A stretch of 64,000 bases of DNA from Amoebophrya sp. A120 (Eukaryota > Protista > Dinoflagellata), in NCBI GenBank assembly GCA_905178155.1, contig CAJINV010000004.1:938629-1002628 (forward strand), written 5' to 3'. The translations under genes were made by a program, and so were the position numbers. The notes under the pieces are model-generated. The model saw only the letters and a list, made by a program, of their open reading frames with translations, was not told where the DNA came from and ran no database searches. This document shows positions 1,454-63,500 of the stretch, one piece after another (position 1 is the stretch's first letter; every line of letters begins with the position of its first letter).

Positions 1454-4400
1454 TTATTGGGTCCCAAAGGGCCGCATCTGCGCAGCGAAATCCACAAATC
1501 CGAGTCGGCGGGACTGGCTGCCGGCGAACCGCTGCCAGAGCAACTCGATCTCCTTGGTCCGCACGTTCCGCTGCTCCAGGATGGCTTTTTGGAAGTCCAG
1601 GAAGGAGATGTATCCCTTGTCGTCCGACATCAGGAGGAAGGCGTCCAGCAGCGCGGTATATCCTGTGCAAAAGTATCGTACTAGTAGTAATCCTAATCGC
1701 AGTCATGCATTACAAATTCTCTTCTTAAGGTAAACCCGCATCACAAATTTTATTTCCCATGCTGAGAAAATTTGTCATGCGATTCATACTAGAACGATAT
1801 TTTTGCAGTTCATACGGTAGACAGCGCGTCCACGTCCATCATGAGCATTTTCCGGAACCGCTCCGTGTCCTCGGCCGCGTCGATTGCGAACTTCAAGTAC
1901 TGCTTGATTTTGTGCTTCTGGGTCAAGGTCAACCGGAACTCCGTGTCACGGTCGTCGCCGATCAGGTTGCAGCGGAAGGGCGTGTGTCAACTGTAAAAGT
2001 GTCTGGGTCTGGTGGAAGAGTCATGCTGTTTTTGCATGACGCAGGAGGTCTGGCATGGAAGCTCTAGCATCACAGGTCTCGAGAAGCTTCCGCCATGCTG
2101 AATCCGCATGACAGATCCCCCATTTTGGTGACAGAAAGTGGGCAGTTTTTGCTACCCGTGCATGAGAGATGTTTCTGTCTTCTGAAATGCGCATCACAAG
2201 TTTGTATTCTTCCAGACCCAAACATTTTTGCAATGCATAGCGTGCGGCACACCGAGCAGGTCACGGAACTGCAACCCTCCATGGTGCGCTGAACCTGTTT
2301 TGGTAGAGTGGATGGGAAAGAATTGTGTTATTCAAAAACACTACATACTCGATCCCCCGTACAAGAAGAACTTTATTACATGCACTACTGTCTCGCTAAA
2401 TGCTAGATGGGAAAAATCTTCAAATCACGATATTAGTACCCTCGTTCCGCAGCCCGGGCAGGAAATGGTGGATCGCACCACGTACAAGACGTTGAGGGCC
2501 TCGGCGTCCTTCATCTGTTGCTCCACGTGCGCAGCCTCCTCGGACTGCTTCGGAAACAGCACGTGCGTGAGCTCCGCGAGACTCAACTGGCCCTGCTTGA
2601 GCTTGGCCGCGTCCCCCTTCTTCAAATCGCGAAACAGCTGGCACACGCCGGAAAAGGTGCAGGGCAGGTCGGACCCGTGCATCACCTGCCACACGTCCGT
2701 GTCGGCGATGTAGCCCTTCTGGTACCGGTCCAGGAACTTAAAAGCCGCTTCCAGGTTCACGCCCGCCTGCCACAGCTGTTCTTATGCAATACAAATTTGT
2801 TGTTCATCCTGCAGCCACGCGTAGAAGTACAAAATGCATATCAAAATTTTTTTCATTCGCCAGCTTAGAGAATGAGTGCTGCTTGTCATGCTGAATAGAA
2901 TTCTTGAAGGCGGTTTTCATCATAATGCAGAAACCGGAATTATATTATTTCTACGTCATGTGCGGGATGAATCATCAATTTTCCTGTGGATAGCTCCTTC
3001 TCGGACTCGATCAAATGGTCTACGTCCATCATTTTGCACATGCACTCGACCACCTTCTTCAAGTTGATCTTCTGCCGCCGCTTGGTCATCAGTTCGCCGG
3101 TCTGGAACGAGTCGGTCGCCTTCGGGGTCTGCGCGTAGATCACGGATTGCGGCTCGGGCGGCGACATGTAGGTGGACATGGACTTGGGCTTGTCCTCACC
3201 AATGTAGGAGGTGGTAAACATGTTGTTGTTCTCGTTTTCGAGCACCTGTGGGAAATTTTTGGGATTATAGGATTTTGCGAATACAAATGAAAATGTTGAG
3301 TAATAGGAACGTTTGCTACTTTTGTAATACAAGTCGTGCTAGTACGAATGATGCTTCTTGTCCGTCTTGCAAAGAAGACCTACAAAATCAAAAATCTGAA
3401 TCTCGTCAAGGGACGAGACAGCAGTAGGAATGCATTCTACCCGCGCGCTAAAAAAGTACTTCGTAAAAATCGTATCTCATCTGACATGAGAAAAACCGAA
3501 TCGCAACTACACTCCTAAATAAATCAAAATGATCTCAAGAGTAGATGATGATTTTCTCTAGTCCTACACAAGCAAGAAGGACGCATATTACCGTAGAATA
3601 TCCGCCCGCCACGTTGGTCGCGGCCGCCCGCGGGGACGTCAGGCTAGACGTGTTGCTCATAAAGGAAGTGTCGTTGCCCACATTCGTCGACATCATGGAC
3701 ATGTTGTTCGTCTTCCGCGGTGTGCGTGGCGACAGTGACGCCACGTTACGCGGAGAACCAGCTCCGGACCGCGCGCAAAAGCCGCCGGACACGTCGTTCG
3801 CGTACGGGTTCTGCTGGACAGAAATGGTCTTGATCGCGCGGGGAGACAGCAAGTCCGCGTCCTGCGCGTTCGTATTGCATTTGAACGTCGTGCGGCAGTA
3901 GTAGCAGGTGACGTTGTTGCACGCGCGAAGTATGAAAGTGCAAAAGATGTTGAACTCGTCCCCGTCGTGGTCCCATCATTTTTTAAATTTGAACGGCACA
4001 GAAGAGCAGCAACCAATCGAAAGTAGAAAGGCGGACGTGCAGAATCAGCTTCACAGGTAGTTTTTCCTGACTGTACCACTCTACTGCTATCCGATCACGC
4101 ACTCCAGATTGTACCACCAACCACACCACTTACTTCGTCAGCAGTTTCTCTTGCAAGGAGCTATAAGCAGTGTAGAGCTGCAAAAGCAGAGCAACATGCT
4201 GACTGAATTTGAATTACGTTTAGATTGGTGTTCAAAAATTTAAATTTTCCGCATACAAAAATAATGACGGGCGGAACCACCTAGGGAGACGAGTTGTTCT
4301 ACTCCCCTCGCATACCGCCCTCGCGCTGCACCATGGCGCCGCAGCCGGGGCACATGGTGGAGAAGTTGCGGACGTAGAGCTCGTTGAGGTACGCGTTGGC

Positions 4401-5974
4401 CTCCTTGGACTGCAGAAACTTGTCAAATTCGGCGAAGGAGAGAATGTATCCTGTGCAAAAGTATCGCACTCGTATTGCATTCATGCATTACAAATCTTCA
4501 TCTTAAGGCAAATCCGCATTACAAATTTTATCTCGCATGCTGGGGAAATTTGTAATGCATTTATACGAGTACGATACTTTTGCAGTTCATAGCATGTCGG
4601 TACCAGAGAGGTTGACGCGGTGAAACAGCTGCTCGACCTGGTTGATGGACAGCAGCTCTTTCACGTCGCACAGCAGGCGGCACACGGCCAGCACCGACAC
4701 ATGCGTCACCCCCGGGGCGGAAGACATGGACTGCAGCCAGGTGAAAGCGCGCTGAGCAATGTGTTCACGGTCCTCACGCCATTCGTACCTGTGGTGCGGA
4801 GTCAAAAGGAAAATTTGAATCCCTTGTTTGTGTTGGTGGACGAACCAAAAATTATAAAGGCCTGCCTTGCCAACGTGGCTGTCTTTTTCTTTTCTGCTCA
4901 AACAAATGTGGCCAGAACAACATAAAGATACGCTCTTTCTGATCTTACTAAATGACTGTCTCGACGTAGTGCAATGTGTGAAGCCATCCACCTAGGTAAA
5001 CATAATAAAACGTATTTTCGAAGAAATCGAAGTACTCTAACAAGCGCTTGCGGCGCAGCGTGAGCTCCTCGTAGAGGGCACATTCCTGCTCCAACAGCCG
5101 GATGAAGTGGTAGCCTCCGTCCCGCCCCATCTCGCGCTCCAACATGGAGCTGGAGCGGCGGCACATGACCAGGGACCGGACCCGCTTGTCCTCCCGGGGC
5201 AGGACGAGTTTCAAAAAACCTTCGTAGCGCAGCACCCCCTCGCCCATGGAGTAGTGGTCGATCAGGTTCTGCAGGTCGCGCTCGCGTATGAACTGCAAAA
5301 GTATCGCACTCGTAATGCAATACAAATTACAGCATGCAAAATGGAATCTGTGTGTAATGCTGCTTTAGCTTGAGCAGGAAGTTTGTGTTGCATGACTGCG
5401 ATTAGTACGAGGAGTGCGATGCTTTTGCAATGCATATCGCGCAGCAACGAGGTCTTGTAGTACTGCCGGGTCAGCCACACGGTGATGTCCTTCGCGGTCA
5501 GAACGCCGGAGGTCATAGGCTTCAGCTGCAACGTATGCATTTTTGCAAATACCATGTCTTGGTCGAGTCTGGTTCACTTCCTGTGTGGCGCAAGATTTAT
5601 TTTAGAAGGACACCAAGATCTCCTGTGAAGATGCATGGAACTACTGAAGGGTCGTGGCGAGTCTTTTCTCCTGTACTTCTAACGGAGCCCTTCATATTAG
5701 CTCGGCAATTATACAAAGAACTTATCATGCTCTCGACCTGTTGGCATACCTAAAAAAGCAAATAAACCAACAATTATCGTCTGCGTCATTCTTCCACCAG
5801 ATTCAATGACATGCACAACATGATTTGCAGTTGATACAGAGCCTTGAAGGCCGTGTAGGGCTCGAACTCAGGGTCCTCGCACATGCGGGCGCGAATGAAA
5901 TCGCACTCAGCCTCCCCATCGGCGGCGACCTTCAGCAAGCCGCTGATGATCACTTCTTCACGCGCGTCCAACAT
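1454..5974 (-). CDS. Multi-exon EF-hand-like protein with two IBR/RING2-like Cys-rich Zn fingers
   Basis: ATG at 5974 (MLDAREEVII..EFEPYTAFKAL) and TAA at 1454. Removing the introners and GT-AG introns joins the ORF pieces in frame; junctions near 4790-5035 are less certain. EF-hand-like loops: FLDRYQKGYIADTD, LMSDDKGYISFLDF, SGTDMLSFAEF. Zn fingers: CPGCGAMVQREGGACNNVTCYYCRTTFKC and CPGCGTRVQRTMEGCSSVTCSVCRTPFRC. Confidence 0.75.
1659..1814. mobile_element. Introner family A (non-canonical intron)
   Basis: TATCCTGTGCAAAAGTATCG...CGATATTTTTGCAGTTCATA; perfect DR CGGTA (1654-1658, 1815-1819); removal gives DALSTALLDAF. Confidence 0.92.
1985..2239. mobile_element. Introner family B
   Basis: TIR core TGTCTGGGTCTGG / CCAGACCCAAACA; perfect DR GCGTG; removal gives CSVCRTPFRC. 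Confidence 0.92.
2295..2439 (-). other. Canonical GT-AG intron
   Basis: GTACTAAT...AAACAG on the minus strand; joins CPGCGTR to VQRTMEGC in frame. Confidence 0.8.
2783..2992. mobile_element. Degenerate introner
   Basis: TATGCAATACAAATTTG...AATTTTCCTGTGGATA; DR GTTCT/GCTCC; removal gives ESEKEQLWQAGVNL. Confidence 0.75.
3246..3591 (-). other. Canonical GT-AG intron
   Basis: GTAATATG...CCCACAG; joins GGYST to VLENEN in frame. Confidence 0.65.
3931..4314. mobile_element. Strongly eroded introner (tentative)
   Basis: Starts TATGAAAGTGCAAAAG and ends CATA; DR not recognisable, but removal plus 5 nt restores the Zn-finger spacing QREGGAC. Confidence 0.5.
4447..4591. mobile_element. Introner family A
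   Basis: TATCCTGTGCAAAAGTATCG...CGATACTTTTGCAGTTCATA; DR GAATG/GCATG; frame restored. Confidence 0.92.
5287..5436. mobile_element. Introner family A
   Basis: TATGAACTGCAAAAGTATCG...CGATGCTTTTGCAATGCATA; perfect DR TCGCG; removal gives SLLRERDLQN. Confidence 0.92.
5534..5836. mobile_element. Degenerate introner
   Basis: TATGCATTTTTGCAAATACC...GATTTGCAGTTGATA; DR CAACG/CAGAG; removal gives FKALQLKPM. Confidence 0.75.
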
Positions 5975-7316: not shown

Positions 7317-10300
7317 TCACAGTTCATCCTGTGTCCTTGTCATACGCGCATTCGGCGCCAGGTTTATTGCAGGTTCTTTCATTCTATCCACATCAACAAT
7401 CGCAGAGCCTCGCCTCAGTGACGTGCTTCTTGCTGGAATCCGCACACGAAATTCGCGCTCGCCGAATCCGCTGATCTTTAGCAAAAAGCGACGAGCTGTA
7501 TTCCTACCATAACCAGCCTCTTCGTTTCTCCTGGTCGCGTTATTTGCTGCGTGTGCTTCCTTTTCAACACGACCACCCTGCTGCTGTGGTACTTCTCGCG
7601 TCCTAATCCTATCGCTATCGTCGTCTTCCAAAAGCAACGGCAGGGGAATTTCCACCAAATGCGTAAAAAACACCCGGCCTGAATCGATCGGCTTCCTTCC
7701 TTCATCCAGGAACGCCCAGCCGTAACTCGTCGGGTGGATTCTTGGAATTGTTAGAACCTGCTGCTTCGTGCTGTTTCGCGTTGTGGCTGGAAGATCTCCG
7801 GGTCCTCCTCGTCGTGGAGAAGATGTGGTGCTACTACTCGTTTCTTTATCCGCCGCGTTCTCTAGCATCCGTAGCACTTCAATTTTGTACTTGCTTGGCA
7901 ACGGTGCGCCCGTGGTTGCGACGGGCGTGCCGGCCGACGGCGCCGAGGGGTGCTCGCGAAAAAGGTTCACCCAACTCAACTTGAGGAAGACTTTGCGGTC
8001 CGCATCCTCGGCGGGTGGCGCGCTGCTGGCCAATGATGTTTGTTGGTGAGAAGAGTGGACTCCATCTGTTGGTGACAGCAGACTTCTTTGTCGCTCCTGC
8101 ATCAAGAACTCCTCCTCTCCGTAGTTCCACGGAACGTCCCAAATGCGAACCGGATTGTGAATGTGATGGTGATCATTCGCATTTGATGAATCGCGTTTCT
8201 TGTTTCTCTTCTTCTTTTTCTTCTTTCCCGTCCTGCTCTTGTCGTCATCCCACTCGTCTGGCGCCGCTGTAAGCTTCACGAAGCCCGGAAAGGCCGGCGA
8301 ACTTGCGGGAGGGTCGATTGTATTCGTTACCAACATTGCATGTGCATTATCGCCATTTGGATTTGCGTTTAGTCCGCCATCGGTTCCTTGTTCATCTTGC
8401 AAAAATATCTTCACTTCCGCCAAGGGTGGGTTGCAACAGTTATTTAGCTCAGGAGGTTCTTCTACTGGTCGGGGTGAACCAGCTTGCTGACTCTGTCCCC
8501 GTCGCTCACTTCGAGTACTTGTTTCCTCCTCAGAGTGGACGCGCTCTCGTTGCCGCGTGGCCCGGTCCCCCTCTGAAGATGTCGCAATCGAAGCTCCTGT
8601 TCTCCTCTCAACATCGTCAAGATCCTCTCGATTATCGTCGAAAAGAGCAGCAGCAGCTGCTATCTCCTCGTCATACTTCGTCCCACTCCGCCCTGCAAGC
8701 CGCTCGAAAAACACGTGACTCTGGATTTCCGGGCTCTGCAGCTTCCGCGCGAAAAAGTTCTCCTCGTTGTTAAAATAGTTTTTCCAAATGATGTCGTTCA
8801 CATATTTTTCGGAGGTTGATTTTTTCTTCTTCTTTTTCATCTTCCCTGGCTTGACCTTACTTGGCGAGGCCGTCGCGTTCTCGAAGGATGTCAATGTTGT
8901 GTAGCTGCTCTTCCTCTTGGCAGAAGCAGTTGTTCCCAACCCGCTGTTCTTGGCGGAGCAGGTCCTCTCGGCTTCGCTACCAGCAGCCATTGTAGAAGTA
9001 CTTTGTGCATCATCAGCCGTATGATCTGTAAGATCATCTTTTTTACCCCCTTCTAGTACCGTCGCGCCATCATCTAGCTCGTGTTCTTCATCTGGTCGTA
9101 ATGCGCCCAAGAGAATGTCATCCAACATCTGTGGAGAATTGGTCCCAATTGCGTCCAACTCCCCGTGGTACCGAGTGGATTTGTAGTTGCTGTTACTGGC
9201 CATGTATGAATTTATGGAAATTTCATGTCTGCGTCCTCGTCCTCTGGAACTCCAGTGCGAAATTTTGGTGCGCAGAAATCAAGTTGCACATAGAAAAATC
9301 TGTCTTGCCATGTGAGCACAGATGAAGTTGTAGCTGCAGACCACTTGCGAGGTATTGCAAAATCTACATCCCAAAAAATGGCTACGCAGCCTTCCAGGAT
9401 AGACGAGATGAACCAGAAAGACAGTTTTTGCATTGGATACCATCACCACACCGTTGATGTGCAGGTTGGCGTTCACCATCTTGTCGCAGTGGTTAGGCGA
9501 GTGCCGGGATCCTCTGCAAAAGTATCAGCACTCGCACAGGTCGTAGTTGCCTTTATGCAGGACAAAACACCTCTCCCTAGCCTGAATCTGTACGACAGAA
9601 TTATAATTTCCTTTCAAATAAATGCAATCTCGCCTTCTAGTACGATATTACAACTTTTGCAATGCGTAGCCGCAACGCCTGCACCCAGTAGGCCTCGTCT
9701 GATTGGTATTGGGCGAGAGCGTCCCGAATCAGGAAGATTGCGGTCTGGCGTTGCTGGAGCGTGGGGAGGTAGTGATAGGAAGTAGAAGTCGTCCTTCGGG
9801 TGTAAAAATTTCTTTTTCTACTTCTAGAGGAGGCAGCGCCTCCTGCTCCCGCGCCAGAAGGAGACTCCTCGTCTTGTCCGATGTCCACATCTTCAAACAT
9901 GCGATCTACGCGTTGCAGACGAGCTGTCGCTCTCTGTACTTCTAGCTGGAGTTCGTCTTTTTCTGCCTGCGGCGGTACTGCATTATGACCAGCATCATGT
10001 CCTTGTGCGCTGCCTCTAGTTGTAACACTTGTTCCAGCATGAAAGACGTCTTCGAACCCGTTGTCTCGTCTTTTCCACTCCACATTTTCCTCGAACGTCG
10101 GGAACAGGACAAACTTGTTTGCTATGCAATACAAATTTACCCGCCCTACACCTAAGTACAATTCCAAATGCCGACACTGCTGCAATATGACAGAATTTTT
10201 TGCGCATCAACGAGCAGGATCATACTCAGATTGACAAGGTCCATTCGTGGCACCAGATTTTACTAAGTAGTTCTTCTTCATCTTGGCATCGCAGTTTGTG

Positions 10301-12857: not shown

Positions 12858-13329
12858 TTTGTCGATTTATTCACTAGAACTTGTGCTTGAACTTGAGCTC
12901 TCCCTCTCTCAAAAACAGAAAACTTCAGCACATAATTGGCAATAATATGAAGATCGCGCCCGGAGGGCGATATTGGTAACCAAATGCGTGCGCGAAAATC
13001 TAACCAGCGCGAAAGCCAAACCAGCCGCGCGGCGAAAGCGCGGCCCTGCGGGCCGCGCTTTCGCCGCGCGGCTGCCACCACCATTTATTTTAATTAGAAT
13101 CCCACTTCTTCTTGAAGAGTACCGCGGAGGCCCACTGTTGCCCGCACTCTGGAGCAGCTTCGGACGCACCTTATCAACACGTAGACTAGGGTCCACATGT
13201 GTCGCTTCCAGAACATGGCCGCGGCCGGGTGGGATGTCAGTCGACGCTGCTAGTTTTAGTGCGCATAGGTTGAAAGTAAGCATCGCCATCTATCGCGGGT
13301 CATCGGGGGCTTCCGGATTCACATTCAAA

Positions 13330-13445
13330 GCTTATCGCAGGAGCCTGCGGGCCGCCGCGGGCTCCACCACTTCCCCGCGGCCCTAATTAAAGGGCCGCGG
13401 ACAACTACTGTCGCCCGCGGCGGCCCGCAGGCTCCTGCGATAAGC
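13330..13445. repeat. Long inverted repeat with nested hairpin
   Basis: 33-bp perfect arms 13330-13362 and 13413-13445 enclosing CCGCGGCCCT-AATTAA-AGGGCCGCGG. Confidence 0.9.
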
Positions 13446-13471
13446 ATTGAAGGCGAAATCCGGTCTGCTAT

Positions 13472-17497: not shown

Positions 17498-17528
17498 AAC
17501 CCTAAACTACCCTAAACCCTGAAACCCT
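17498..17528. repeat. Degenerate telomere-like (CCCTAAA)n tract
   Basis: AACCCTAAACTACCCTAAACCCTGAAACCCT. Confidence 0.55.
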
Positions 17529-46400: not shown

Positions 46401-49400
46401 ACAGATACTTTTGCAGTTCATATTTCGACGCTTTCCGTGACTTCCGCCTACCGGAGTTTTTGTTCGTTACCGGCGCCTATGCATTGCAAATATGTCTGGG
46501 TCTGGAAGAGGACAAGTTTGCCATGCACATTTTCCATGATCCATGATGTCTGTGATGTATGCCATAGCATCACAGATTTTTTGAGCGCTGAGCAATGCGC
46601 ATCCTGCATGACAAATGCCATCTCCGCGTAGCCAAATTTTGACTCCTCTTGCTGTTCATGCAGTACAGATTTTTTTAGCATCCAAATGCAGCATTACAAG
46701 TTTGGCTCTTCCAGCCCCAGACATTTTTGCATTTGATAGCGCTTCGGTCTTTTCCAACAACGCGTCCGGGAAGGCGACCAGGCTGCGGTATTTTTTCAGG
46801 AAATCTTTCGTCGTTAAATGCAAGTCGAAGCTGCTCTGGCACACCTTCTGCAACTCTAAAATGCCGAGGCCGGCCAGCTGCTTCGTTACCATGTCCGTGT
46901 CGAAATTCAAAGCGGCCTTGGCCGGATTCGGCTTCACGCACATGCAGAAAAACAGTTGGTCCGCCTTCGCCGCGTTCTGCATCAGTTTCAGCAGCTGTCG
47001 CAGTTCCTGCGCGAAGATCATGGTCTTCGGCTCTGACTTCTTCACCAACTCCGGGTCGCTGTCGTGGATCACGCCGAGACCGATTTTCGGCAGCTTCTGC
47101 TCGTACTTGTGAAAGTCCAGGGGGGCCTCGTGCAGAAAGGCGTCCAGCAACGACACCTGGCCTTTTTCGCTCGGCGGGACGTCCTTTTCCAGGTCCGCGT
47201 TGAAATTGGCGAGGCAGGCCTTCATCTCTGACAGGACCGAAGACGGGACGCGGCAGTTATTCGCGATGAAGTTCTTCGTACTGTAAGCGATCACCTGCTT
47301 CGATGAAGTTGATGCACTAGAGTTTTTGTCTGTCGTGGAATTAAAAGACTGCGGCGCGTAGTAGCCCGCGTAGTGCGCGATGAGGAAGGTGGAAAACTTC
47401 TTTTCGATTAGCTGCTGCCTGCCTTCCGCCGCGTTGTCGTCCTCCTCACTGCTGTTCTTCTCGTCACCGCCGCCAGCGGACAGCATCTGCGACTTGTAGT
47501 GGTAGGTCGCACAGAATTCTTGCCACTTGGTCAACTTTTTTGACGGCTGTTCTGGCTTCAATGGGGACATAGTTGTACTATTATTTGCGCTTAGTTTCTC
47601 CTCCAGCTTCTTCAGCAGGGCAAAATCGGAGCTGGTCGTTGCGTTCGACATGGATCTGCGCGCGGTTTTGGTGCTGATCTGCTTGTCGGCATGATCGCAG
47701 TCCCCGGGGAGGTTGTCGGAGAGACGGACCATGTTCTGTAAAGTAACCTCGTCTAGCAGAGGGATGAAGTCGTTTTCCAGGAAGTTCAGAAAATTTTCGT
47801 TGCTGTCGTAAAAGGACCGGGATGACTGAGTAGAGAGCTCAAGTTTTTCCAACCCGGTTTCGTGGCTGCGTTCGAACTCCCGTTTGAGCAGTTGAAGTGA
47901 CTTCTCTACCTCGTTCACCTCGAAAAAGCGGCGGAGCGTCTCCGCCGCGTAGTTCTTCAGAAACTGGTCCAGGGTGTTTTCCTGGACCGACTCGAACCCG
48001 AAGGCGTCCACGAGAAGCAACTTTTTCACGTGCTGCAGGTCGTATTGCTCCGTTTCCACCTTCATGCTCTCGGGCAGCTCTGACATTAAAAGCAGTTCCG
48101 TGTTCATCTTGGTCTTCACGAAGGTAAAGATCGACTCGTACAGGTTAGCGGCAATCCCATCACGGATCCGGAGAACGGAACTGAGAGGATTTTTTGACGT
48201 TTTTTCATTTTTGTGCATATTAATGTGTACATAATGGAATTTCATGCTGGTCGGTCCTCTTCGTTTTACATTTATCAATCTGGTTTTTGGCGTTCACTTC
48301 TTCACTTGAAGAAGAACGACCTGTACATAAACCGATAGGACATCTTGATAGGTGGCGCTGGCGCTGCGGCGCTCGGATATTAAGCTCCTGGTCCTGCTCG
48401 TCACACGTACTAAATCTACAGTACCTACCGCTGATGTGATGATGATCACAGTGGAAAACCAAAACCAAAACGAAAAGCACTAGCACGTCCGTAAATATCA
48501 AACTTTAAGCATTACTGTATTCCCCTTGGTCTGCGAATCGGTTCAGCCGTGCCTGACTTCTTGCTTTTCTCTACCAGGAACAGGTCCTTCAGGACATCCA
48601 CATCTTTCAGCCCGAGCAAGGCCGTCAAGTCCTCAAGCGCCGCGAGCCCCCGGGCCGTTAAGCTCACTGCTCCTTGTCCACCTTCTGTCGTATTCATCTT
48701 GTCGTCCTTGTTGCCATCCGTGTTGGAGGGGGCTGCGCTACTAGTACCGCTGCTGCCACCAGCTGCACCAGCAACGACGTCGATGTTACCGATCTTGAGG
48801 ATGACGTTGAGCAATTTCAAAATCCCGCCCAACTCGGTGTTGCTCACGTTGTACTGCTCCAACAAGCGCCGCATGTCCAGAAACCGGGCGCAATTGAGCA
48901 GGTCAGCGTTCGTCAGCTTCAGCATGGTCGCGTCCTCGTCGGGGAGGAGCATCAGACTCCGCTCGTCGCCGTCATTGGCGTCCTGCTGCTGCAGGTCCGT
49001 GTTCATGTAGCGGTACTGGTTTTCCGCGTGCACGCGCAGCTCTTCGACCACTGACAAGACCCCCAAGTCCTGGTCGCATTTCAGCATGCAGTTGCGCAAT
49101 TGCGCCGGGTGGATTTTTCCGGAGTTCTCCTCCACGATGCGCTGCTCCAGTGTGTCGTCGATCACGATCGCGGAATCCGGGTCCAGCGGAAACTTGTCGT
49201 TGTCAAAGGCCTTGAGCTCGGAAAACTTTTGGATGCACTTCAGGTACGCGAAGAAGCAGGTGAGCAGGTGGAAGTTTGACTCCCCCGGGTTCTGCTTCGC
49301 GACCTTGTTGGCCTCAAAGGCGTAAGTCTTGTTCACCGTCTGCGTCACCAGAAACGGGTACCGGGCCAGCACTTGCTTCTTCTCCTCGCTCAGCATCGCA

Positions 49401-51598: not shown

Positions 51599-54500
51599 TC
51601 AACTCATGGCCCCCGGGCTAAAGCGGTGAAACACATGCTCCAGGCGCATTTGCGACAACGACGCGCGTAAGTTGGTTGATGTCCCTTGTTGCGTCGTGCT
51701 CATGTTCCTGACCACCTCGCTGTCTTCTTCCTGCTGCTTCTCGTAGCTGTGGAAGAAATCCAAGAGAACCGCAAGATCGAGCAGATTCGTGTTCTTCAAT
51801 TTATTGTTCCGCGCTTCCACCGGTTGTGAAGAGCCATCAACCGGAGTGTAGCTGTCGTTTTCCATGTGGTCCTCCTGTTGCGACATCAACCCCAGTGACG
51901 GAAACTGCAGGCGCAGTTGCAAATTTGTCCCGGTGCCGTTAATGATGCGCACATCCGGGTGCAGTTTTCGCAGTTCTTCGAGGAAATCTTCTAAGACAGC
52001 AACTTCCGCAGCAGAGGTCGTTGTGCCAGCAGTATTTTTGCCAAGTAGACCTCCTGCTCCATTTCGACGGCCCCCAGAGATGAGAGACGTGGACATCGAC
52101 ATGCCTGATAGTGTACTACGAATCTTCTCGCGCTCCACGATGGCCTCATACCCGCCACCGTAGACTTGGCGCAGCCGGTTCACCGAGCCCAGACACCGCC
52201 AGCGTCCCTCCACCTGGATGGCAATGCGGTGACAGAGAAACTCGGCCTCTTCCATACTGTGTGTGGTCAAGATGCACAAGGTTCTGTCCAGTTGCACATA
52301 CTTTTGCAGGCACCTCCACAAATTTCGCTTGGCCACGGCGTCCATTCCCGTAGAGGTATGCACAGAAAAAAACCCATCCACATCCAATTTGTCATGCAAA
52401 ACACGTATCAAGTCATGTGCTTGCCATGCAAAAAATGGATGTGGATGGGTTTTTTTCTGTGGATAAGAGGGCTCGTCGAGAAAAAGCAGCTTCGGCTTTG
52501 ACAAGAGCGCAATCGCCACGCACGTCTTCCGCTTGTTTCCGCCGGAGAGCTGGTAGCACTTCTTGTGCAGGTAGGGCTCCAGGTCCAGCTCTACGATCAA
52601 GCTCTGCATGCGCCGTTTCAGAAAAGACGCGTAGGTCGTTGAGGTAGAACTTGTTGCTCGGGTAGAAGTAGTAGCCGGACGAGCGCGTGAAGATGAAGGC
52701 TCTGTCTGCAGCTCCACTGCTGGAGGTGGTGTTGTACTAAAATCGGCTTCCGCAGCGCGCGTGCTGTTGTTTTGCTTCAAGCGGCGGTAAATGTTGAGGT
52801 TCTCCAAGACCGTCAGCTCGGAGAAGAGCGGCGTATCGAATTGCGGACAGTACCCTATGTATTCGTAGGGGACTTTATCGTGGTCCCGGGACGACGAAGA
52901 GCTCTGCAGCAGTCCGGGCAGGATGTACACTTCGCCCCTCGTCGGGGTTTCCAGGCCCAGCATCATCTTAAACGTTGTTGTCTTTCCCGCGCCGTTGAGA
53001 CCCAGGAGGCCGAAAATTTGGCCGCCTGGTGAAGATCCCGCTGAGCTCGAGGACGAGGCTCTAGTGTTCGTGGTAGTACTTGAACTCGAAGCCGTCGACG
53101 CGGCGCTGGCAGTTGTGGAACTGCCACTGGTCAGGCTTGTCGCAACTTCGTTGTTCGCAGCTCTGTTTTTGAGCGGCCCCACTCCTGCTCCTCCTGCGTC
53201 CAGCGCGCCAAAAAAATCCACACCGCAGACGGCCTTTTTCTCTTGCACCTTGCTCGAAATGCTTCGGTCTAGCGAGTAAAACGTCTTTTCCAGATTGTGC
53301 AATACCAGGTAGGGGTGTGACGAGGATTGTGCCGCACTAGGAACTACATCTTGTTCCCCGCCCTGAAAACCTCCTTGATGGTGCGCCGAGTGTCGAGAAG
53401 AATCTGAATCATCCTCTTGTTGCCCACCTACTTCTAGTGCCCCTGAAGATTGTTGTACTAGTTGCGAGGACCCTGGTGGAGGAGTTCTATCCCGCCCTTG
53501 CTCTGACTGTTCTTGCTGTTGCTCCTCATCTTCTACTGCAATAGATGAAAAATCTCCCCGTTGTCCCGGGTCCTGCCTTTGAAACCAGCCACGAAACAAA
53601 CGGTAATGCAGCCAGTTCTTGACCTTTTTGCGTTCCGCCACGACTTCCTGGTCTTCGTCCTCTGGGATGTTTTTTACTCTGGTGCCCTCATCCTCTTGCT
53701 CGAAGAGAGCAGATTGAGCTTCTCGTTCTCCTTCTAGAAGAACCCGGTTTGTACTACTGACACCACTAGAAGTTGTACTGAGGACATCGTTTTCGTTTCC
53801 CCCAGGTAATTGCGATTGCTTTTGTGGTCCACCTTCTAGGCCGTCCACCGTCGCGCCTGCACTAGAACCAGTTCTTGCACGACTGCTGCTTCTGCTCTCG
53901 TCTCCTTGCACGAAGTTGTCTGCGTAGGCCGGCTGGTGCACGTGGACGAACGCCGGGTTGGTATGAAAGAGTGCGGAACTTCCTCCCATTCCTCGTTGTC
54001 TCCACACCCTAGAGCTACTTCTACGCCGGCCGCCAATGAGCCGGTTCCAGCAGAACCGCTTAACGAATAGCAGACCACGGCAAAACAGCATGGTTGACAG
54101 TTCCAGCAGCTTGCGGAGCAGTCGGGTTAGCAGAAAAAAGCAAAGTGTAAGGCTTCCGGTGCAGAAATAAAGCGGTAACAAACAACATCTTCTCGAGAGG
54201 GACGCGAGTCTGGTCGTTGTTATTTTCATCGCTGGGAATCTTGTTCGTGCAGTAGAGTTTTGGTTTTCATTATCCGTTGTTCTTGCAGCGGCCGTTCCCG
54301 TCGTCATGTTCCAGAGCAGGAGCAAGTACGCGAAAAGCGAGACTGCCAACAAAAGCAGCTCGTCGCCGATGGTCAGGAACTCCGACAAAACGATTTCCAC
54401 TGCGCGGTCGTATATGCACTGCAAAAGTATCGCACTCGTAGTAATCGCAGTTATGCATTACAAATCTATTTCTTAAGGCAAATCCGCACTACAAATTTAA

Positions 54501-57500
54501 TGCTAAGTCAATTTGTAATGCAATTTATACTAGTACGATAATTTTGCAATGCATATCGTACACCCGCTGCAGATTCCCAGTCGCGTCAATCCCGCTGAGC
54601 TGCGCAAAGTAGTGCAACACTTCGGCCCTGTTCAAGTGCAGCTCGATGGGGCTCTGCAAAAAGTGCACGAGTTTCTTTTCAAATAAATCTTGCTCCTCGG
54701 ATAGCGGTGATGTACTACTGGTTGACGAAGCAGAAGTTGTGCCAGCAGCAGTAGAGCTAGCCGCCTCCAACAGAATGTCGCCGAGTTCCCCACGCTCCAC
54801 TAGGTAGTGGAACAGCTCGTCAAATTGTGCGTCTTCGAGGTGGACGACTGGCGGGGCGGGAGGGTTAAGAACTTCTGGGTCGTCCTTATCGTTTTCGTTC
54901 TGGAGGTCAGATGAAGGAGATGAAACTTCCTGTTCTCCATGATGTGGCTCTCCTGTCTTCGTTTCCGCATCCGGATTCGTAGCAGCGTGGTAGTCTGCTT
55001 TATTGGTCCCTTGCTGCGGCCGCGGAGGCCTTTTGTTCTTCGTCATCTTCGCACTAAAAACATCCTCGATCTGGCGCTGCAGGAGCAGTTTCAGGGCAGG
55101 CTTCAGGTGTGCGAATGATATGGACGACCTAGGTGCTGGGCTTGTAGTACTATGCGAAGATGCAGAATCAGACGTACCAGTGCTACTGCCCCCTGCTGCT
55201 GCTGGGATCCAACCCGAACCGCCCGCCTCGTCCTGGTGGGTACTACTTTGTTCTACTCTACTCCCAACAACTTTCTTCCTTTCCCTTACCTTGACCACGT
55301 TTCGCAGCACCTGTCGCACCTTTTGCAGCACGCCTCGGTAGGGCTTGATTGGATCGGCCCCGTGGCAGCAATCCAGGCTCTTTTCGATCGATTGCAGTTT
55401 GATCGTATACAGTTCCTCCTCGCGGTTGTTGTTCACCGGATCCTCTCCTTTCCTCCCCGCCGCCAGAAACTCGCTCATCAACCGGCAACCGATTCTTGGA
55501 TCAGATTCTTGCGAAGAAGTTTTCGTTTTCCCCCAACCGGCTTCCGCTTTATTTTTCTTCCCATCGGAAGATGAAATAGCTCCACCATGATCTTCACTTC
55601 CACGGCCAGCAGCTCCTAGCCGACAAGTGGAAAAAGTGGCGCTTTGCATCACGTGTGGCAAGACAGCATCCATTGGGCGTACCTTGGGCAGTACGAGCTC
55701 ATCCTCGATGCTTGTGCTGGGGGAAGATGAGAGCGATGAATGTGATTGCTCAGCAGATGTTAACCCTACCGAGACAATCTCTTCCAAAAGCGGGAAGGTC
55801 GCAACATGGGTCGACGTTTCAGCGGTTTCATCAGTTGGTGACGTCCTCGCTCCTGCTTTTTCATCAGCATAAAAGACCGCGCTCACCTATGGAATGCAGA
55901 AGTATCGTACTAGTATGAATTGCATTACAAATTTCCTTAGCATTACAGTTGGAATTTGTAATGCGGTTTTGCCTTAGGAAAAATATTTGTAATGCATGAC
56001 TGCAATTACTACGAGTACGATAATTTTGCACAGGATATCACCAGTCCGGGGTTGATCTGCTCCGCGATCCGCAGCATGGAAACTCTATGGATCTGTCAGG
56101 ATTGAAATCGCTAAAGTTTAAATGATTTGTCATGCAAAAAATGCAAGGCATGAAGTGCCTGTCTTGCCGGCATGGCAAGTGAGGCAGATTGTGACCCTAT
56201 TTAGGGTTTGGGATAGAGCTGCCAAAGGAGCATGACAAAAGCAGTCTCCTGTGCCCAAACAGCATGACAAATTGGATTCCGGTGCTCCGAAAGTTTGTCA
56301 TGCGCGGCTTGGAAATCGGTCTTCCAACTGGTACTATCCATTTGATGCATGACAAATCATTTCAACTTTGTCGATTTCAAACCTGACGCTTCCATAAACT
56401 CCGCCGTTGGCGTACACCGAGCTCTTGACAAAGTCCGCCCACTGCAGGAACAGCACCCCCTTGCGAATCGTGAGTTTCAGCACCGCCTGCAAAAACGGGA
56501 AGCTCGGGACCAGCACCCCGCCAATGGTCGCCAGCCCCGCCTTCCAGTAGGCAATCGGGACGGAGAATACCGCCGGGTGTTCCAACTCTTCCAAGTAAAT
56601 CGCCTTCGACCGGTCGCTGTGCTCGCAGTGCTGCTCATTGTCGTTCCAGTGGCAAAAGTAAAACCGGTCCGTGTCGCAGTCCGTTCTTCTGTCGATCCGC
56701 TGACGGCTGAAAGAAAGCGCCGCGAGCGGTTTGTAGTAGCTGCAGACGGTGTCAATGCGGAACTTGTGCGGGTTTTGGGAGTGCGTGAGGGAGAAAATTT
56801 CGAACGAGGTGAGGGAAAACGACACGGCCACGAGGAGGAGACCACCAAAGAAGTGGTAGAAGAACAGAGACAACGCCAGCGTGTCCGAATTGTTGTTGCT
56901 GTTCATGTTGATCCCTGTGTTTTTTGCCCCTGCTGAGGACGCTGCACGACCCCCGGCACCGAATGAGAGTTGTTGTAGCAGTCTCCCAAGGTATCCGGTT
57001 AGTGGATTCACCGTACTAACACTCTCACCATTCCACGAGGTTCTTCGTGTTGTCGCAGCTCTTGTTCCGCCGGCCACTATAGAACAATTGCCGTCCTGTC
57101 CTTGCTCTTCTTCATATACTTCTTCACGACCCGCAGCACGACTTCTACTACTGCTGCCGGTGCCGCCCGAGAACGCCCATGCGCGGCCGGATTCGGAGCC
57201 AACGTAGGCAATGAGTACCGCGACCATGGAGAAGAGAATCGCGAGCAGCAAGAAAAGCAGTCCGTAGAGGTTTGGAGAAAGCACGAGAACAGGCGTAATG
57301 GTGTCACTAGAATTAAAAACATCTTCCTCGGAAGCAGAAGGGCCCAGAGGCGCGGCACTTGATGTTCTCGGTGACGAAGGACCATTCTGAACTGCACTAG
57401 TAGATGCAACTACCGGAAGATGGCTCTTGCTCGTGTTAATGTCCTCTGTGAGTTGGTGTTGCTGCGATGTAGAAGACGCTTGTTCTTCTGGCGACGAAGT

Positions 57501-60500
57501 TCTTGCGGGAATGAAGTAGTTCTTCCTGCTCATGTCTCCTGTGTAGAAGTCCTCAACATCGAGGTCCACTAAGGAAAAAATGTCCACGCCCCCGACCGTG
57601 TAGCCGACGGTGAGGAGCAAGCAGACAAAAGAGAACCAGACGTAGTCGAATACCAGGTTGCCGATCCAGTACTTCTTCAAACTCACGCCGGCCAGCAGGA
57701 TGTGCAGCTTCCACTCCAGCGCGCGCTCGTTTTCGTTGAAGAAGACCACATTGAGGGTGAGCAGTGTCAGGATGAAGAGGTTAAAAACCGAAAGAAACGC
57801 CGCGGAAGGGATGAGCGGCAGAAAAAAATTCTTCAAAATGTGGTCCATGCCGACAGGATGAGCTTGCATATCATTAGCACTTCTGCTGCCAGCATCGCTT
57901 GAAGATGCCTCGTCGTCCAATGCGTTTATTTTTTTTCCGGGAAAAAGTGCGTCCATCGGGAAGACTTGCAGTGTTGGTGGCAGTACCTCCGCCCGAGGAA
58001 AGCTGTGCTGCAATAACGAGCTACTTGTACTTCTACTTGTTCTGAAACTAGTTGACAAAAGTCGTTGCGATGTTGGAAGGACGTCCTCGACGTTGCGGGG
58101 GTCGACATCTCCCCCGGCTATCTTCGTGGCCGCGGCCTTTCTGCTTCTGCTATGTACAACTGACTGCGCATCATGATCCTCGTTTTCGACTTCCGTGGCA
58201 GCAGCTCCAGCCGACCACATGCCTCCTCGTGCAGCTTCTTCCGCTTGTTTTGCTTGTGTCCAGCTAGTGTGAGCTGCAGCTTCGAGGGAGGATTGCAACA
58301 ACTGCAAGGGCGTGCCGATTGGGTTGGTATTAAGGTTGTGGAAGAACGTTGTTTCTGTTACCGTCGTAGGAGTAGGACCACGATCTTTCCCTCCTGCTGA
58401 AGGTCCTTCTTGTCCTGTTCTTTGAGAAACATGCTTAGACAGCACAACTCTCTCTTCTGTCAGCACAGCCACCTGCAAATCCGGGGACTTGGGCGGAAGC
58501 AGGCGGATCCGCGGTGTAGGTTCTCTTGTTTCATCGAAGAAGGACATGAAAGCTCCTCCTGCTCCTGCGCTAGAAGTTGTACTTCTAGAGCTGTGGGCTC
58601 CTTCCGCTGGATACGCAAGCCACGGGCGACCCGGCAAAAACGTGATATAATCCATGAAGTGCTGCGGAGCGGCACGACCTCCGGCATAGTTGTTGGCTTC
58701 TCCTCGTGCAGCTCTTGATCGTTCGTTCTGTGGAGCCCCTGCTCCAGCTCTTTTACGGGAAATTATATCTCCGTTCGTCCGCGCCAGCATACGAAGGACA
58801 TCCCGGTCGCACCCGTTCAGCCACAGGTCTGGAACGTGGTCCAGATACTGTTGCGGAGAAGAACCCCTCGTCGTGTCTCTTTCAATTCCATGATCTCCGC
58901 TGCTGCTAATGTTTTCAACATCACCAGACGAAAGACTATTGCGAGAGAGCTGCGAAAAATCCTTCTCGTCATTCCGAATAATCCAACAATCGGACTCCTC
59001 GTTTCGGTACGCCAGTTGCACAAAATCCGCAGTGTAGGGCCGCAGAGATGACGAGGACGACTGGGAGGACATCGAGGGAGGTGGTCCCTCTTGATGTGCG
59101 AAGGAAGAGAAACTGGAACTAGAACTACTTCTACTACGAGAACCTTCCTGGTATTCATAATTTTGCTCCACCTCCTCGTCGTCGTCCATGTTCTCCCCGG
59201 ATTGAAAAAAACCCTCGCCCGTAGCAGACAACGCTCGTATGCGGAAGATTTTCTTCCGACTAGCACTGGCACCTGGGAGTCGATTCGAAGTACTTTTGAG
59301 CGTCGTCCCTCCGAATAGTGCCGCGAAACGACCCACCGCGGGGTAGTAAGTAGAGGACCCATCTGCTTTATTCCCTTCTGTCGTCGCGGACTCGGTCTGC
59401 TCATCAAGAAGTTGTTGTGCTGGCGCTTCTTCATTTTTTCCTCCTTCGCCCACCATTATGTTGCCACTGCTCTCGTGCATCAGACCGCCCGACACCGGAA
59501 CATCCAGCCCGACCTGTTTTTCCCCCAAAACTTTTCCGTAGAATTTGTTCTGCGGCTTGACCACTCTCGCACTGCTGGAGCTACCCAGTTCGTAGAGCCG
59601 CTGGCGGATGAGTTTGTTTGTCCACAGCTCATTGTCCGCGTGTTGGAAAAAGGCCTTCGCCTCATAGAAGTCGGTTTGCAGCAGTTCCTCGTACTTTTTT
59701 TCCAAAAAAAACCGCAGGCCGTCGTGAAAAACATTGAAGCCGATAAGTGTGAACAGATTCTCAAGCAGCGCGTGCTGCGTGTCATCGAGGTTGTAGTGCG
59801 CAAGCGGGTCTTGTTGTTGTTCCGTGTGTTCTTGAGAAGAAGAGGTGGTGCTGGGGGTACTAGTCGTTTCAGTTTGTCCGACCACACGATTAGAATTATG
59901 GTCGTCGTGTGCAACCACGTCGACAAACAGCATACTGGGACTGCGCAACAGCAAAAGACGGAGCTGTGTGTATGAGGAGCTTCCGGCGCTTGGTGCGATG
60001 GAAAACTGTGTCTGTGGCTTATCGTCACTTGTACTCGTGGTCTTTGTGCGAAGAAGATCAGTGACAGTACTCCGCTCCAACTTCGAAGCCAACTTCTGTT
60101 TTTCCTCCGCCAGGAAAAATGTCACCGGTAGTTGCGTTGGAACCGCAACCGGTGCAAGTAGAACCGGTGATCCGTCGGTGGTCCTCGCCCTTGCTACAAC
60201 AATATTGAATCTCTTCTTCACCTGTTCCCAAGAAGGCAAGAATTCTTCGTGGAAGAACCTTCGCCGGGCCAACTTTTTCTCCGCATCGAGCAGATCCATG
60301 CGTCGCTCGAGTTCCGGTAGCAGGACCGTGGTCAAGTCGTGCGGAATATCAAATGCAAAAATGTCTGGGTCTGGAAGGAAGCGAACTTGTGATGCGCATT
60401 GCACAACATAGACAAATCTCTCATGTATAGGCAGCAAAAGGCGCCCATTTCCTGTCACCAAAATGGGGGATTTGTCATGCGGATTAAGCAAAGCGGAAGC

Positions 60501-63500
60501 TTCTCGAAATCTGTGATGCTAGGGCTTCCAAGACAGACATTTTGTGTCATGCAGAAGCAGCATGACAAAAATCTGCACTCTTCCAGACCCAGACATTTTT
60601 GCATTTGATACTGAAACGCGTCCTCGCCTATCTCCTCCCGCCACTTCTGAAAGGCGGACAAAACAGCCCTCACGTCGACTTTTCTTTTGGAAATCATCTG
60701 CTTCTCATTGATCTCGTCGATCTGGAGTTGCAGCAAAACGCCCGGCTTGGTCAGCCGCGGAGCCAGGAAAACGTAGTCGAGCGGGTTCTGGGCCAGGGCT
60801 TCGTAGAGGAGATCAAACTGCTTCTTTTGCCTCGGATCATGCGCTGATGTGTTCTCTAAAAAGCTTTGAGGATCATGAAGATTTGCATCTACTACTTCAC
60901 TACGAGCGGCAGAGGAATCCGAATCCTTCGGTAGTTGCTGTGCTTCAGAAGTAGTTGTCGTCGATGATGACCTTCTCCTGAGAAGAAGTTCTTTGGCGGC
61001 ACTCAGCCCAACCGTTGCACTACCCACTCCGTCTTCAACTACATCTTTCTCGGATGATTTTTTTTCGGCTCCTTTGTCCTCTTCTACCTGCGTTCTTGTA
61101 GTTGAGGTAGTTGTACTAGGGGACGACGACGAGGACAGTTTGCTTTGCCACACAGCCGCCAGGTCCGCCACGCTCGGCGCTTGCTTCAGCAAGGTTTCGA
61201 AGCTGCGGGGCACAGGTTCGTCTAGTAATTCCTCCATCCGCCGGAACAGCAACTGCTCAAACGCTTTTTTATCGCGGAAAGTTTTCTGCAAAGCGACGAA
61301 CAGAAACCACTTGTGGAACGCAACATCGGACACGGTTTCGTCTTGGATTAAGGCTTCCAACGGCTGTTTCTCCTGCAGATGAGGCCGCTGTGCCACATCA
61401 ACGCGGCTTTCTCGTAGCAGATTCTCGTATTTGTCTCTTCCGCTGAGAACTTGGATCTTGTCCAGCAATGTGTTGGAGCTCCTGGCGCCAGCAGGTGAGA
61501 AAAAAACGCCAGCATTTCTTTTGCGAGAGGACCCAAAAGAAGCTGTAAAAAACTTGATCTCCGAAGAAGATTCCACCGTTGCTATGAGCGAATCATTTTC
61601 AAACCAAATCTGCAGAGTCGTGGCGTGGTCCGACATCAAGTCACTTGTGGCAGCTCCTGCATGAAGATCTTCATGTAGTTCTTGCCCCCGCGGGGGCCCA
61701 CTGCTCTCGCCAACAACATCTTCGCTACTTCCAATGCTCCGTATCATTGTCAACCGCGGGTCGTTGAGGTTCACGTATTTTTGTTTTGGTTGGGACTTTT
61801 TGGTTCTTGTCCCGCCGTCTTCTACGAAAACTGTTGCGTCGCGCGGTGAGGAAGAGGACCTGCTGGTGGACCACCTTTGATATCTTTTTTCATCTTGGGG
61901 ATCAAAATCGAAAGTAGGCCTCATCAAACTCTCATCCTCCACGATGTTGACGTAAACGCCACCGAGGTCCAGCTCCAGGCCTTCGTGCTGCTTCTTGGCC
62001 CGCCCTTGCTCCAATGAGACGTTCTCGTCTGGGTACAAAACCTTGTCGATCAGCTCCTGCGAAAAGGTATACTTGGAAGAACTCGTCGTCGACGCCGGAT
62101 CCGCCACAGCCGCGAGCATTTGCGACGGCAACAGCTGCTGCAACTGCTTTTTCAACACGGGAGCGATCTTTTCAGGTGCTGGAGGGATGAACGGATTTTG
62201 AGTGGCTGCATTTTTCGCGGTTGTTGACTTTGACGGTGTGCTAGTAGAGTCCGCGGCATTTTCAAGTGGAGACACTTCTCCTTCTTCAACCTCGTCGTAG
62301 TTTTCTTCCACAACCGCGACGCTTCCCAACGCCGCGCTGCGACAACAGCGGATGATCGTCTTCGCTGCGATCCTGATCGGCATCTGGTAGTACTGGGCCA
62401 GCTTGTAGACGCCGCTTTTTGAAGAAATAGCACCACCTCCAGTCGTACTACTCGTCCCTTTCGTGGCCGCTGCAGAAGTTGTGGTCCCTCCAGTGGTGGC
62501 GCCAGGATTTGTTTTCCGGACTCCCTGAAGTTCGATTCGCGGCGCCATCTCGGTCTGCAGCAGGTTGGAAAACCAAATACCGAATGCAAAAATGTCTGGG
62601 TCTGGAAGACAATGCAGGTTTGTCACGCTTGTCTGGCATGACTCTCAAATCTGTGATGCATCAGCAGGAAAAGAGCCTCTTGCCTGTCATGCAAAAACGC
62701 AGCTTGTCATGCGAAAAACGAAACACACAACAGCACAAAAAACTTGTCATGCTGGGCTGCATATTGCAGTGCGCCGAGCCACCATTCGCAAACTAGCATC
62801 ACAAGTTTCCAGACCCAGACACTTTTGCAATGCATACCAAAGCTGCAGCTGCAACGAGTACAGGCGTTGGCTTTCCACAATCCTCTGAAGATGGAGCTGA
62901 TTATAATTTTCCTCTCGTTCAGTAGGCAGATGTTCATGTTCTGAAGCTGACATTTGTGCTGCCGTTAGAAATGCATCATTCAAAACGGCGTCGTCGTGTA
63001 TCCAGTCAAGAGGCGAAATGCCGACCACCTCCTGTCCGTTGTCCAGGTTGCAGCTGCTGCGCTCGGTTTTCTGCAAATCGTGTTCGGATAAAGACTGCAA
63101 CATAGTTTTCAAAAACAGTGCTTGTTGTGATTCAGATTCTAATCGATGCTCGACACCTACTTCGCTCTTCGTTCTTGTTGTACCCATGCCGTCCAGTAGT
63201 TGTTCTCCTGTCAAAGCAGTAGCTCGTGTAGTCGCGGCCCCAGCAGCACCTCCGTGCACAAAACGACCCAAGTGGTTCTTGCCACTACACCGTGCCCACA
63301 AAAAGTTTCCCGGCTTGAAGGTAAATGGCTGGACAGCGCTGAAAAAAGGACGTGGAGGTGGTTCGGAGGACTTATTGTTGCGGCCCTGTTCAAGACCTCC
63401 AGCAGGTCTATTTCGTTCTTTCTCGTCCTCTATTCTGTTTCTCTCCCCGACGCATGATCCCGACCCAGGCAGCAGCTGCAGGAGCTGCCCAATTCGTGAA

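Follow-up and report, generated by a model that had tools for sequence, protein, structure and literature searches.

A phased ten-base motif in non-aligning introner families of Amoebophrya sp. A120: a candidate binding array for a common transposase

Introduction

The movement of the tens of thousands of repeated introns of Amoebophrya sp. A120 without a recognised transposase, and their splicing without U1, have both been stated as open questions (PMC7789003). We analyzed a 64,000-nucleotide stretch of this genome (contig CAJINV010000004.1, positions 938,629 to 1,002,628; hereafter the window), in which a 186-aa ABCA-type exon is 100% identical to an Amoebophrya sp. A120 protein, for a short motif, GCAT[G/C/T]ACAAA, that recurs inside such introns (introners).

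According to Farhat et al. (2021, PMC7789003), A120 introners have inverted repeats (IRs) consisting of TAT, seven nucleotides and at least three A, are flanked by short direct repeats treated as variable (3–5 nt), and are removed at non-canonical junctions; 1,954 IR families were published, and U1 was detected in neither A25 nor A120. The elements of the window agree with this anatomy in host, in IRs of TAT, 7 nt and an A-run, in their flanking repeat and in non-canonical splicing, and the introners themselves are thus already known. In contrast to the published description, every family examined here has one uniform signature of TA..TA ends and a 5-bp target site duplication (TSD). In the table of Gozashti et al. 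(2025, PMC12130899), most of the 40 A120 rows covered here, out of 58, are classified as ‘TIR DNA, Unknown’ (TIR, terminal inverted repeat). Family 38 of A120 contains open reading frames (ORFs) homologous to long terminal repeat elements (Copia/Gypsy) and is tabulated as ‘Ginger, 5-bp TSD, TA/TA termini’ (Dataset file 8), while the main text describes it as lacking typical Ginger termini.

In having TIRs, a TSD of fixed length, many dispersed copies and no coding capacity, the elements are like non-autonomous DNA transposons of the miniature inverted-repeat transposable element (MITE) type. Their 5-bp TSD agrees with the 4–5 bp of Ginger2/TDD (5 bp in TDD-4/5), whose TGTNR termini they do not have; they have the TA..TA termini of IS3EU/GingerRoot without its 6-bp TSD, and the TNT..AYA termini of IS481EU (T. 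vaginalis) without its TSD of 4, 15 or 25 bp (PMC10045372, PMC2836005). Judged by ends and duplications, they appear to resemble integrase-like transposons while fully matching none, as no single group joins TAT..ATA with a 5-bp TSD.

Arrays of short repeats inside transposon ends are also known. Transposases bind subterminal repeats that are helically phased (IS607 family) or variably oriented (hAT), IS1535 carries four 9-bp direct motifs approximately 20–60 bp from its end, and Mu has a remote transpositional enhancer (PMC6188088). The present elements likewise contain a short, conserved motif repeated at regular spacing inside both ends, for which transposase binding may be predicted by analogy. 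Unlike in hAT, IS607 or Mu, a single motif is found here across many non-aligning families, at a pitch of about 16 bp and in alternating orientation, and the elements are introns removed by splicing; their TSD measures 5 bp, compared to 8 bp in Tol2 and none in IS607. The non-conventional introns of euglenids are similar in that a TIR hairpin joins non-canonical ends, in their TSD-like repeats and in their suspected MITE origin, but their end motif is CAG/CTG and the passages covered mention no internal phased array (PMC11282704).

Results

A motif concentrated in introners

Introners were located with a finder that was blind to the motif and demanded a flanking 5-bp duplication with 0–1 mismatch; an inner match within the element at 39284 was discarded. 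This yielded 24 non-redundant elements of 109–381 bp (5,282 bp) that start with TAT (one with TGT, one with TAC), end with ATA and fall into nine families (A–I). With their TA..TA ends and 5-bp TSD, they are inserted in both orientations and without target preference; the host genes are on the minus strand. The motif GCATNACAAA occurs exactly at 46 sites of the window, 25 on the plus and 21 on the minus strand (reverse form TTTGTNATGC), and 39 of these lie inside the 24 elements. This corresponds to 7.4 sites/kb versus 0.03–0.04/kb elsewhere, and to 39 sites where Markov models of orders 1–3 predict 0.2–1.3. The other seven comprise one in coding frames (30.8 kb), one in other non-coding sequence (24.5 kb), one in the eroded element at 19802 and four in tandem repeats. 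A first-pass annotation of this DNA had proposed that the motif recurs in both orientations across introner families and is rare in exons, and these counts bear it out and make the case stronger than proposed. Eight of the ten positions that it had named are exact sites; 56125 was off by one (56126), and 41523 is a variant with one mismatch.

The motif consists of a core GCAT[G/C/T]ACA, in which the middle base is almost never A, followed by an A/G-rich tail. A matrix trained on the window, [not G]GCAT[G/T/C]ACA[A/G][A/G]T, finds 3–6 sites in most elements, and Rfam returned no match. The families had been described as unrelated, and this held for part of the sequence: with the motif and the 15-bp ends masked, similarity between families is limited to a few isolated scores at the z 6–8 threshold, whereas within families it is mostly z 10–60. 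However, TAT[C/G]-N6-AAAA ends and the 5-bp duplication are common to all families.

The elements and related introns are listed below by window position, with no strand assigned; sites marked ‘annotated’ are among those named in the first-pass annotation.

1659..1814, family A introner: TAT..ATA, exact 5-bp TSD; sites 1707 and 1738 at a distance of 31 bp, and 1771 in inverted orientation
1985..2239, family B introner: TGT..ATA; four internal sites, all on one strand
2783..2992, eroded introner: single internal site; removal with 5 bp gives an open minus-strand frame
4447..4591, family A introner: sites 4485 and 4516 paired, 4549 inverted
5287..5436, family A introner: opposite orientation
9508..9668, eroded family A copy: of its sites, a single weak one remains; removal with 5 bp gives the longest open frame
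19802..20124, family C element: eroded TSD; annotated site 20073; 32-bp pair; candidate intron
20962..21240, family F introner: six one-strand sites forming three pairs, 31, 33 and 31 bp apart
22109..22257, family A introner: annotated sites 22142 and 22206
27723..27950, old non-canonical intron: eroded ends, no motif site; 233 nt skipped in one X1 contig
31073..33785, introner with B-type left end: nested 2.4-kb insert at about 31139–33515; 2718 nt (element + 5) are spliced out; the 336 bp not belonging to the insert hold two weak sites
37033..37240, family E introner: spliced, 213 = 208 + 5
37641..37813, family A introner: spliced, 178 = 173 + 5
37868..38159, family B introner: spliced, 297 = 292 + 5; all strong sites on the same strand
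38628..38894, old TAT..ATA intron: lacks a strong site; 272 nt skipped in splicing
39284..39525, family D introner: spliced, 247 = 242 + 5
40262..40527, family B introner: 32-bp and 31-bp pairs close to either end
40689..40897, eroded A-like intron: a single weak site; probably spliced, judging by the contig's length and the bin depth (coverage of 282 of 654 nt)
41422..41582, family G introner: spliced, 166 = 161 + 5; sites 41454, 41470, 41491 and 41523
43495..43875, family C introner: within the myosin gene
44094..44299, family E introner: six sites; spacings of 15–17 bp on opposite strands and 32–33 bp on the same strand
44341..44654, family C introner: three pairs, 32 bp each
45293..45535, family D introner: annotated site 45485
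46258..46422, family A introner: pair 46334/46365
46478..46738, family B introner: pairs close to both ends
52357..52465, family H introner: one-strand 32-bp pair; an RNA contig joins 52351 to 52466 (109 + 5)
54413..54555, family A introner: within the ABCA-type gene
55888..56037, family A introner: pair 55955/55986
56086..56396, family I introner: sites 56126, 56230, 56262, 56294 and 56347
60347..60610, family B introner: annotated site 60560
62578..62836, family B introner

The motif in a second assembly

A search for two sites combined with an element end recovered 74 metagenome-contig stretches from one further assembly (JACKZZ01 contigs), which merged to 638 kb. They contain 412 elements (3 exact duplicates), and dropping the 52 that match the query left 360 held-out elements. 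These loci were selected beside a motif pair and siblings share ancestry; family counts therefore outweigh copy counts, and the window is free of this bias. The window's families recur here at approximately 75–94% identity, and 14 families have at least three held-out copies. A motif site is present in 355 of the 360 held-out elements and two or more in 346, with exact sites at 5.4/kb compared to 0.15/kb in sequence without element homology; the middle base is G in 506 sites, C in 265, T in 234 and A in 13. The elements start with TAT in 407 of 412 cases and with TGT in five. Their 5-bp TSD is exact in 335 of 412, the finder having demanded 5 bp with at most one mismatch; duplications of 6–8 bp were not seen, and an exact 6-bp duplication was found in none of the 412.

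With motif and ends masked, the only links between the large families were a single chimeric copy, a short match of simple repeats and occasional hits of hidden Markov models (HMMs), the latter involving 1–3 sequences at E values of about 5e-5 or weaker. Frame restoration did not discriminate in this assembly (+5, 308; +4, 275; +6, 282 of 412), for which reason genes were oriented by the longer open frame (196 of 412 oriented).

The sites lie on a lattice of roughly 16 bp

The spacing of 31–33 and 16 bp, which the first-pass annotation had not noted, is the most informative feature of the motif. Among same-direction pairs up to 60 bp apart in the window, 25 of 49 are at 31–33 bp, and these are found in 20 of the 24 elements and 8 of the 9 families; under random placement, 8 families in any 3-bp window has a look-elsewhere p-value of 0.0018. 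The second assembly contains 153, 77 and 49 such pairs at 31, 32 and 33 bp, respectively, in 9, 11 and 7 families, and 2 families account for the next same-direction peak (39 bp, 67 pairs). Opposite-direction sites are 15–16 bp apart, which gives a lattice of roughly 16 bp. In the consensus sequences of eight families, neighbouring sites are separated by 16, 32 or 48 bp, give or take 2 bp, in 24 of 31 cases, whereas the best period in 5,000 random placements reaches at most 21. All eight steps of 15–16 bp connect opposite-facing sites, and three families have a forward-reverse-forward triad. The length of the spacers is kept while their sequence diverges. Only 3 held-out sites are centred 20–34 bp from an element end, nearer ones being excluded by design. 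Three turns of B-DNA measure about 31.5 bp. The spacing of 31–33 bp is thus close to three helical turns, which points to a protein on double-stranded DNA.

Constraint and decay of the motif

Substitution rates were obtained by parsimony on 304 held-out copies of 8 families and expressed relative to the other interior columns, where the spacer rate may be inflated by misalignment. The core columns evolve at 0.29 times this rate on internal and 0.50 times on terminal branches, while the free middle base evolves at 1.15 and 1.22 times and the TIR columns at 0.49 and 0.81 times, respectively. The constraint on the core is alike for strong, weak and CpG bases, and is therefore not an effect of CpG or base composition. 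The first-pass annotation had named full homology of the families, with a neutrally decaying motif, as one outcome that would overturn its proposal; the masked families do not align, and the core rates are not those of neutral decay.

The possibility that the motif is retained in old, eroded introners, which had also been raised, is not favoured. Five eroded elements of the window have 3 sites in 1,075 bp, as opposed to 102 sites in 5,282 bp of the intact set. Among relaxed held-out candidates, there are 1.3–1.5 sites per 100 bp at 0–1 TSD mismatch (n = 26), 0.8 at two mismatches (n = 16), 0.4–0.5 at three or four (n = 25) and 1.0 at five (n = 8), the latter groups also containing falsely paired ends; site density drops with TSD erosion. 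Within the young set, density did not track the TIR score. A masked-HMM decay test, with core/decoy values of up to 0.97 in old copies, was discarded because heavy masking misaligns diverged copies.

Splicing of the introners and strand symmetry of the sites

When element plus 5 bp is removed in silico, minus-strand frames of the window fuse to 3711 codons (ABCA) and 1094 codons (myosin), which they do not when 4 or 6 bp are removed with the element. RNA contigs from one sample skip exactly the element plus 5 nt at 31068–33785, 37027–37239, 37636–37813, 37864–38160, 39279–39525 and 41417–41582, and a seventh such skip is at 52352–52465. Introner removal in RNA thus takes the element and one duplication, at non-canonical junctions. 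Among the joints of the spliced contigs, of which all but 2 were covered, are also 7 of GT-AG introns and 2 of old non-canonical ones, and the presence of GT-AG joints indicates that the contig runs represent spliced RNA. Of the raw RNA runs, X8 yielded 0 reads and X9 yielded 4. In DNA run X5 the summed depth over the elements is approximately 1,000–70,000 versus approximately 30, a value that fits many copies but is no copy number.

The sites show no strand bias with respect to transcription. In the window, 55 are in transcript sense (GCAU.ACAAA) and 47 in the complement; 172 oriented held-out elements carry 331 and 372 sites on the two strands, 10 elements being sense-only and 11 antisense-only. 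Held-out site positions mirror each other at the 5' and 3' ends without splice-site bias, and the fixed strand or position relative to a splice site that is expected of an RNA splicing cis-element such as a branch point or enhancer was not found. The spliced elements at 52357 and 37868 have their strong sites on opposite single strands. The old spliced introns 27719–27951 and 38622–38893 contain no site scoring at least 10. A single weak site is present in the intron at 40689, whose splicing was deduced by contig arithmetic, and all sites of the 2.7-kb intron are weak. Of the 7 canonical introns, five are without a site, the remaining two containing a weak and a strong one, respectively.

Discussion

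A binding array for one transposase

On balance, we consider it fairly probable that the GCAT[G/C/T]ACAAA sites, on their grid of about 16 bp, constitute a double-stranded DNA binding array, as predicted from their arrangement, for one transposase that moves all families. A single trans-acting factor, which the first-pass annotation had proposed, is supported because a conserved core with a free middle base and a fixed spacing are found across non-aligning families and replicate in the held-out set. Of the two roles suggested for this factor, binding of DNA by a transposase fits better, while an RNA splicing mark is disfavoured by the absence of strand preference and by old introns that splice with no or one weak site.

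We infer that a multimeric protein would dock on the phased sites, at least about 35 bp in from the ends, and would assemble or capture both ends, in the manner of subterminal repeats or a transpositional enhancer. Capture through the lattice would leave the family-specific TIR stems free to drift. An integrase-like DDE enzyme, possibly of the Ginger2/TDD, IS3EU or IS481EU type to judge from the TA..TA ends and the 5-bp TSD, would then cut and insert. Copies that lose sites would cease to spread, so that all successful families would have kept the motif. Once an element is inserted, its splicing would depend on the terminal hairpin and the TAT/ATA tips rather than on the motif, which would decay.

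The phased motif is a real cis-grammar that has apparently gone undescribed so far, a variant of transposon subterminal arrays. We found no report of it in the literature on Amoebophrya introners, transposases or splicing, nor under the literal 10-mers, in a search outside of which most subscription papers lie. The portions covered of PMC7789003 and PMC12130899 report no internal common motif or spacing, GCATGACA and TGTCATGC have 0 matches in the supplement text of PMC7789003 (figures S19–S25 being images) and in 12 of the 14 supplements of PMC12130899, and the passages covered of PMC11282704 and PMC8151067 contain no report of the motif. The phased 10-bp site could serve as bait for the missing protein and as a signature for an autonomous partner, and it suggests that the 1,954 published IR families could be clients of one machine. 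It also distinguishes the probable requirement for jumping, the lattice, from the requirement for splicing, the ends. Through the lattice, many families could probably be mobilised by one integrase-like (Ginger/IS3EU-type) transposase.

Several observations weigh against this reading. Family D has no 31–33-bp pair, only opposite-strand spacings of 46–49 bp. Sites face inward in families A and E and outward in B, C, D and I, and their distance to the end also varies, which makes for a poor fit to a rigid end-binding site. Across age quartiles of terminal branches, the core/other rate is 0.57, 0.56, 0.44 and 0.48 without a rise to 1, in a test limited by the 638 kb sampled, as terminal branches mix post-insertion history with that of unsampled transposing ancestors. 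The old introns form a small set, with two joints shown and one inferred, from one sample. Neither a transposase domain nor a binding protein was found in 22 ORFs of the window or, for the second assembly, in the 295 longest of its 442 ORFs (the other 147 are of 140–171 aa). Four long TIR-bounded elements proved to be nested insertions whose ORFs appear non-coding by eye. Nor did Farhat et al. detect a transposase in A120; they spoke against transposases as a general means of mobilisation (PMC7789003). No autonomous partner with the same ends was found in the window or the 638 kb. In viral contigs, the bipartite pattern gave 29 single matches (16 distinct), of which one has element-like ends, a chance-like outcome.

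Alternative explanations

It is possible, though unlikely, that the lattice is occupied, not by the transposase itself, but by a host DNA-binding or architectural protein which the elements would use as a helper in assembling their ends, reaching the germ line or escaping silencing. All of the DNA-level evidence would fit such a protein equally well, no transposase is known in A120 according to the parts of PMC7789003 covered, and the freedom of orientation and end distance is as in enhancer-like sites. Four exact sites, moreover, lie in an unrelated-looking TG..CA element (13502–13808), but these represent one ancestral site multiplied in tandem. A host protein would also be expected to have sites in other non-coding DNA, where there is just one in 24.5 kb of the window and 0.15/kb in non-homologous sequence of the second assembly.

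We give little credence to the idea that a DNA-bound protein, of host origin or a domesticated transposase, marks introns on chromatin and recruits U1-independent splicing co-transcriptionally. Strand symmetry is what a DNA mark would show, constraint persists on terminal branches, U1 went undetected in A25 and A120 (PMC7789003), and 355 of 360 recognisable elements have kept a site. However, old introns splice without a strong site and those of 2.7 kb and at 40689 with weak sites only, the eroded elements have lost most of their site density, and one motif-less element retains 17 of 20 TIR positions. Also doubtful is a combined version, in which the lattice would be the landing pad of a transposase-derived protein used twice: to move the families and, still bound to DNA, to flag new insertions for U1-independent splicing until their hairpins suffice. 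If true, the landing pad would be a DNA-encoded, strand-blind intron mark.

A role in RNA, with opposite-facing copies lengthening the intron hairpin or a splicing factor reading one strand, is very unlikely. In predicted folds of 70 elements, the pairing probability is 0.77 for the motif compared to 0.59 for the other interior, and 42% of motif nucleotides would pair with another motif copy. Pairing, however, requires neither one sequence across families nor a same-strand spacing of 31–33 nt. The consensus fold of family A has an unfavourable covariation term (+1.88), its one double change in the motif stem falling on the free base. The 21 of 172 oriented elements with sites on a single strand and the mirrored positions also speak against it, and spliced elements with sites on one strand only largely refute it.

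That the sites are functionless relics of a module of approximately 42 bp from a common ancestral element is highly improbable: the shared end signatures and a faint inverted mid-spacer vestige (above shuffled spacers in 12 of 13 families, though with negative scores; a weak hint) agree with it, but the core is conserved 2–3.5-fold over neighbouring columns around a free middle base, spacer length is held over diverged sequence, and masked families fail to align apart from the few links given above. The within-family rates refute it as the sole explanation; a common origin followed by selection is compatible with an array bound by one transposase.

Further observations

Two of the exact sites outside the 24 elements have a particular setting. 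The only one in a coding frame, 10295, is in a possible eroded introner (10123–10352), the boundaries of which the frame test leaves unsettled. The one in other non-coding sequence, 41148 (GCATTACAAA), is in the GT-AG intron 41103–41260, which appears by eye to hold an eroded TAT...ATA element and is possibly an introner turned canonical intron. The tandem repeats belong to a 1.95-kb intergenic element (12974–14926) whose 21-bp TIRs (TGG...CCA) are perfect and which contains internal palindromes and two tandem arrays of approximately 100–109 bp, one of which has the four exact GCATGACAAA copies at 13502–13808; an end resembling that of this element is also found at about 19038.

In families A and B, the first 10 bases are a few alleles common to both (for example at 1659, 46478 and 54413), and left and right ends are often unlike at positions 4–7 while positions 1–3 and 8–14 pair, which suggests end swapping or free positions. 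The 2.4-kb insertion at 31139–33515, nested in a spliced introner, is covered by RNA contigs of its own, which have loose ends from other loci; its 7 ORFs have no Pfam match, and it is an unclassified repeat. In the second assembly, introners of 1–3 kb with nested repeats (L048:11878–14817 in merged coordinates, L035:4446–5417 and L051:1547–2930) have intact end TIRs and 5-bp TSD. A supposed ‘Family 14’ of two identical motif-less copies was dismissed as a single locus on a duplicated contig, and L063:3–3335 (minus strand) encodes a 1111-codon ORF with a reverse transcriptase domain (PF00078, RVT_1), a retroelement.

Removal of six introners, each with 5 bp, at 51599–63770 gives the single 3711-codon ABCA-type frame. 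The public protein that corresponds to its C-terminal exon is 864 aa long, and the public annotation probably fragments this gene. Retention of the element at 52357, which with its TSD measures 114 nt, leaves the frame open. The regions 15930–18670 and 24037–26193 contain related ankyrin-repeat genes with near-identical stretches (for example about 18500–18670 and 26000–26190) and are a local duplication.

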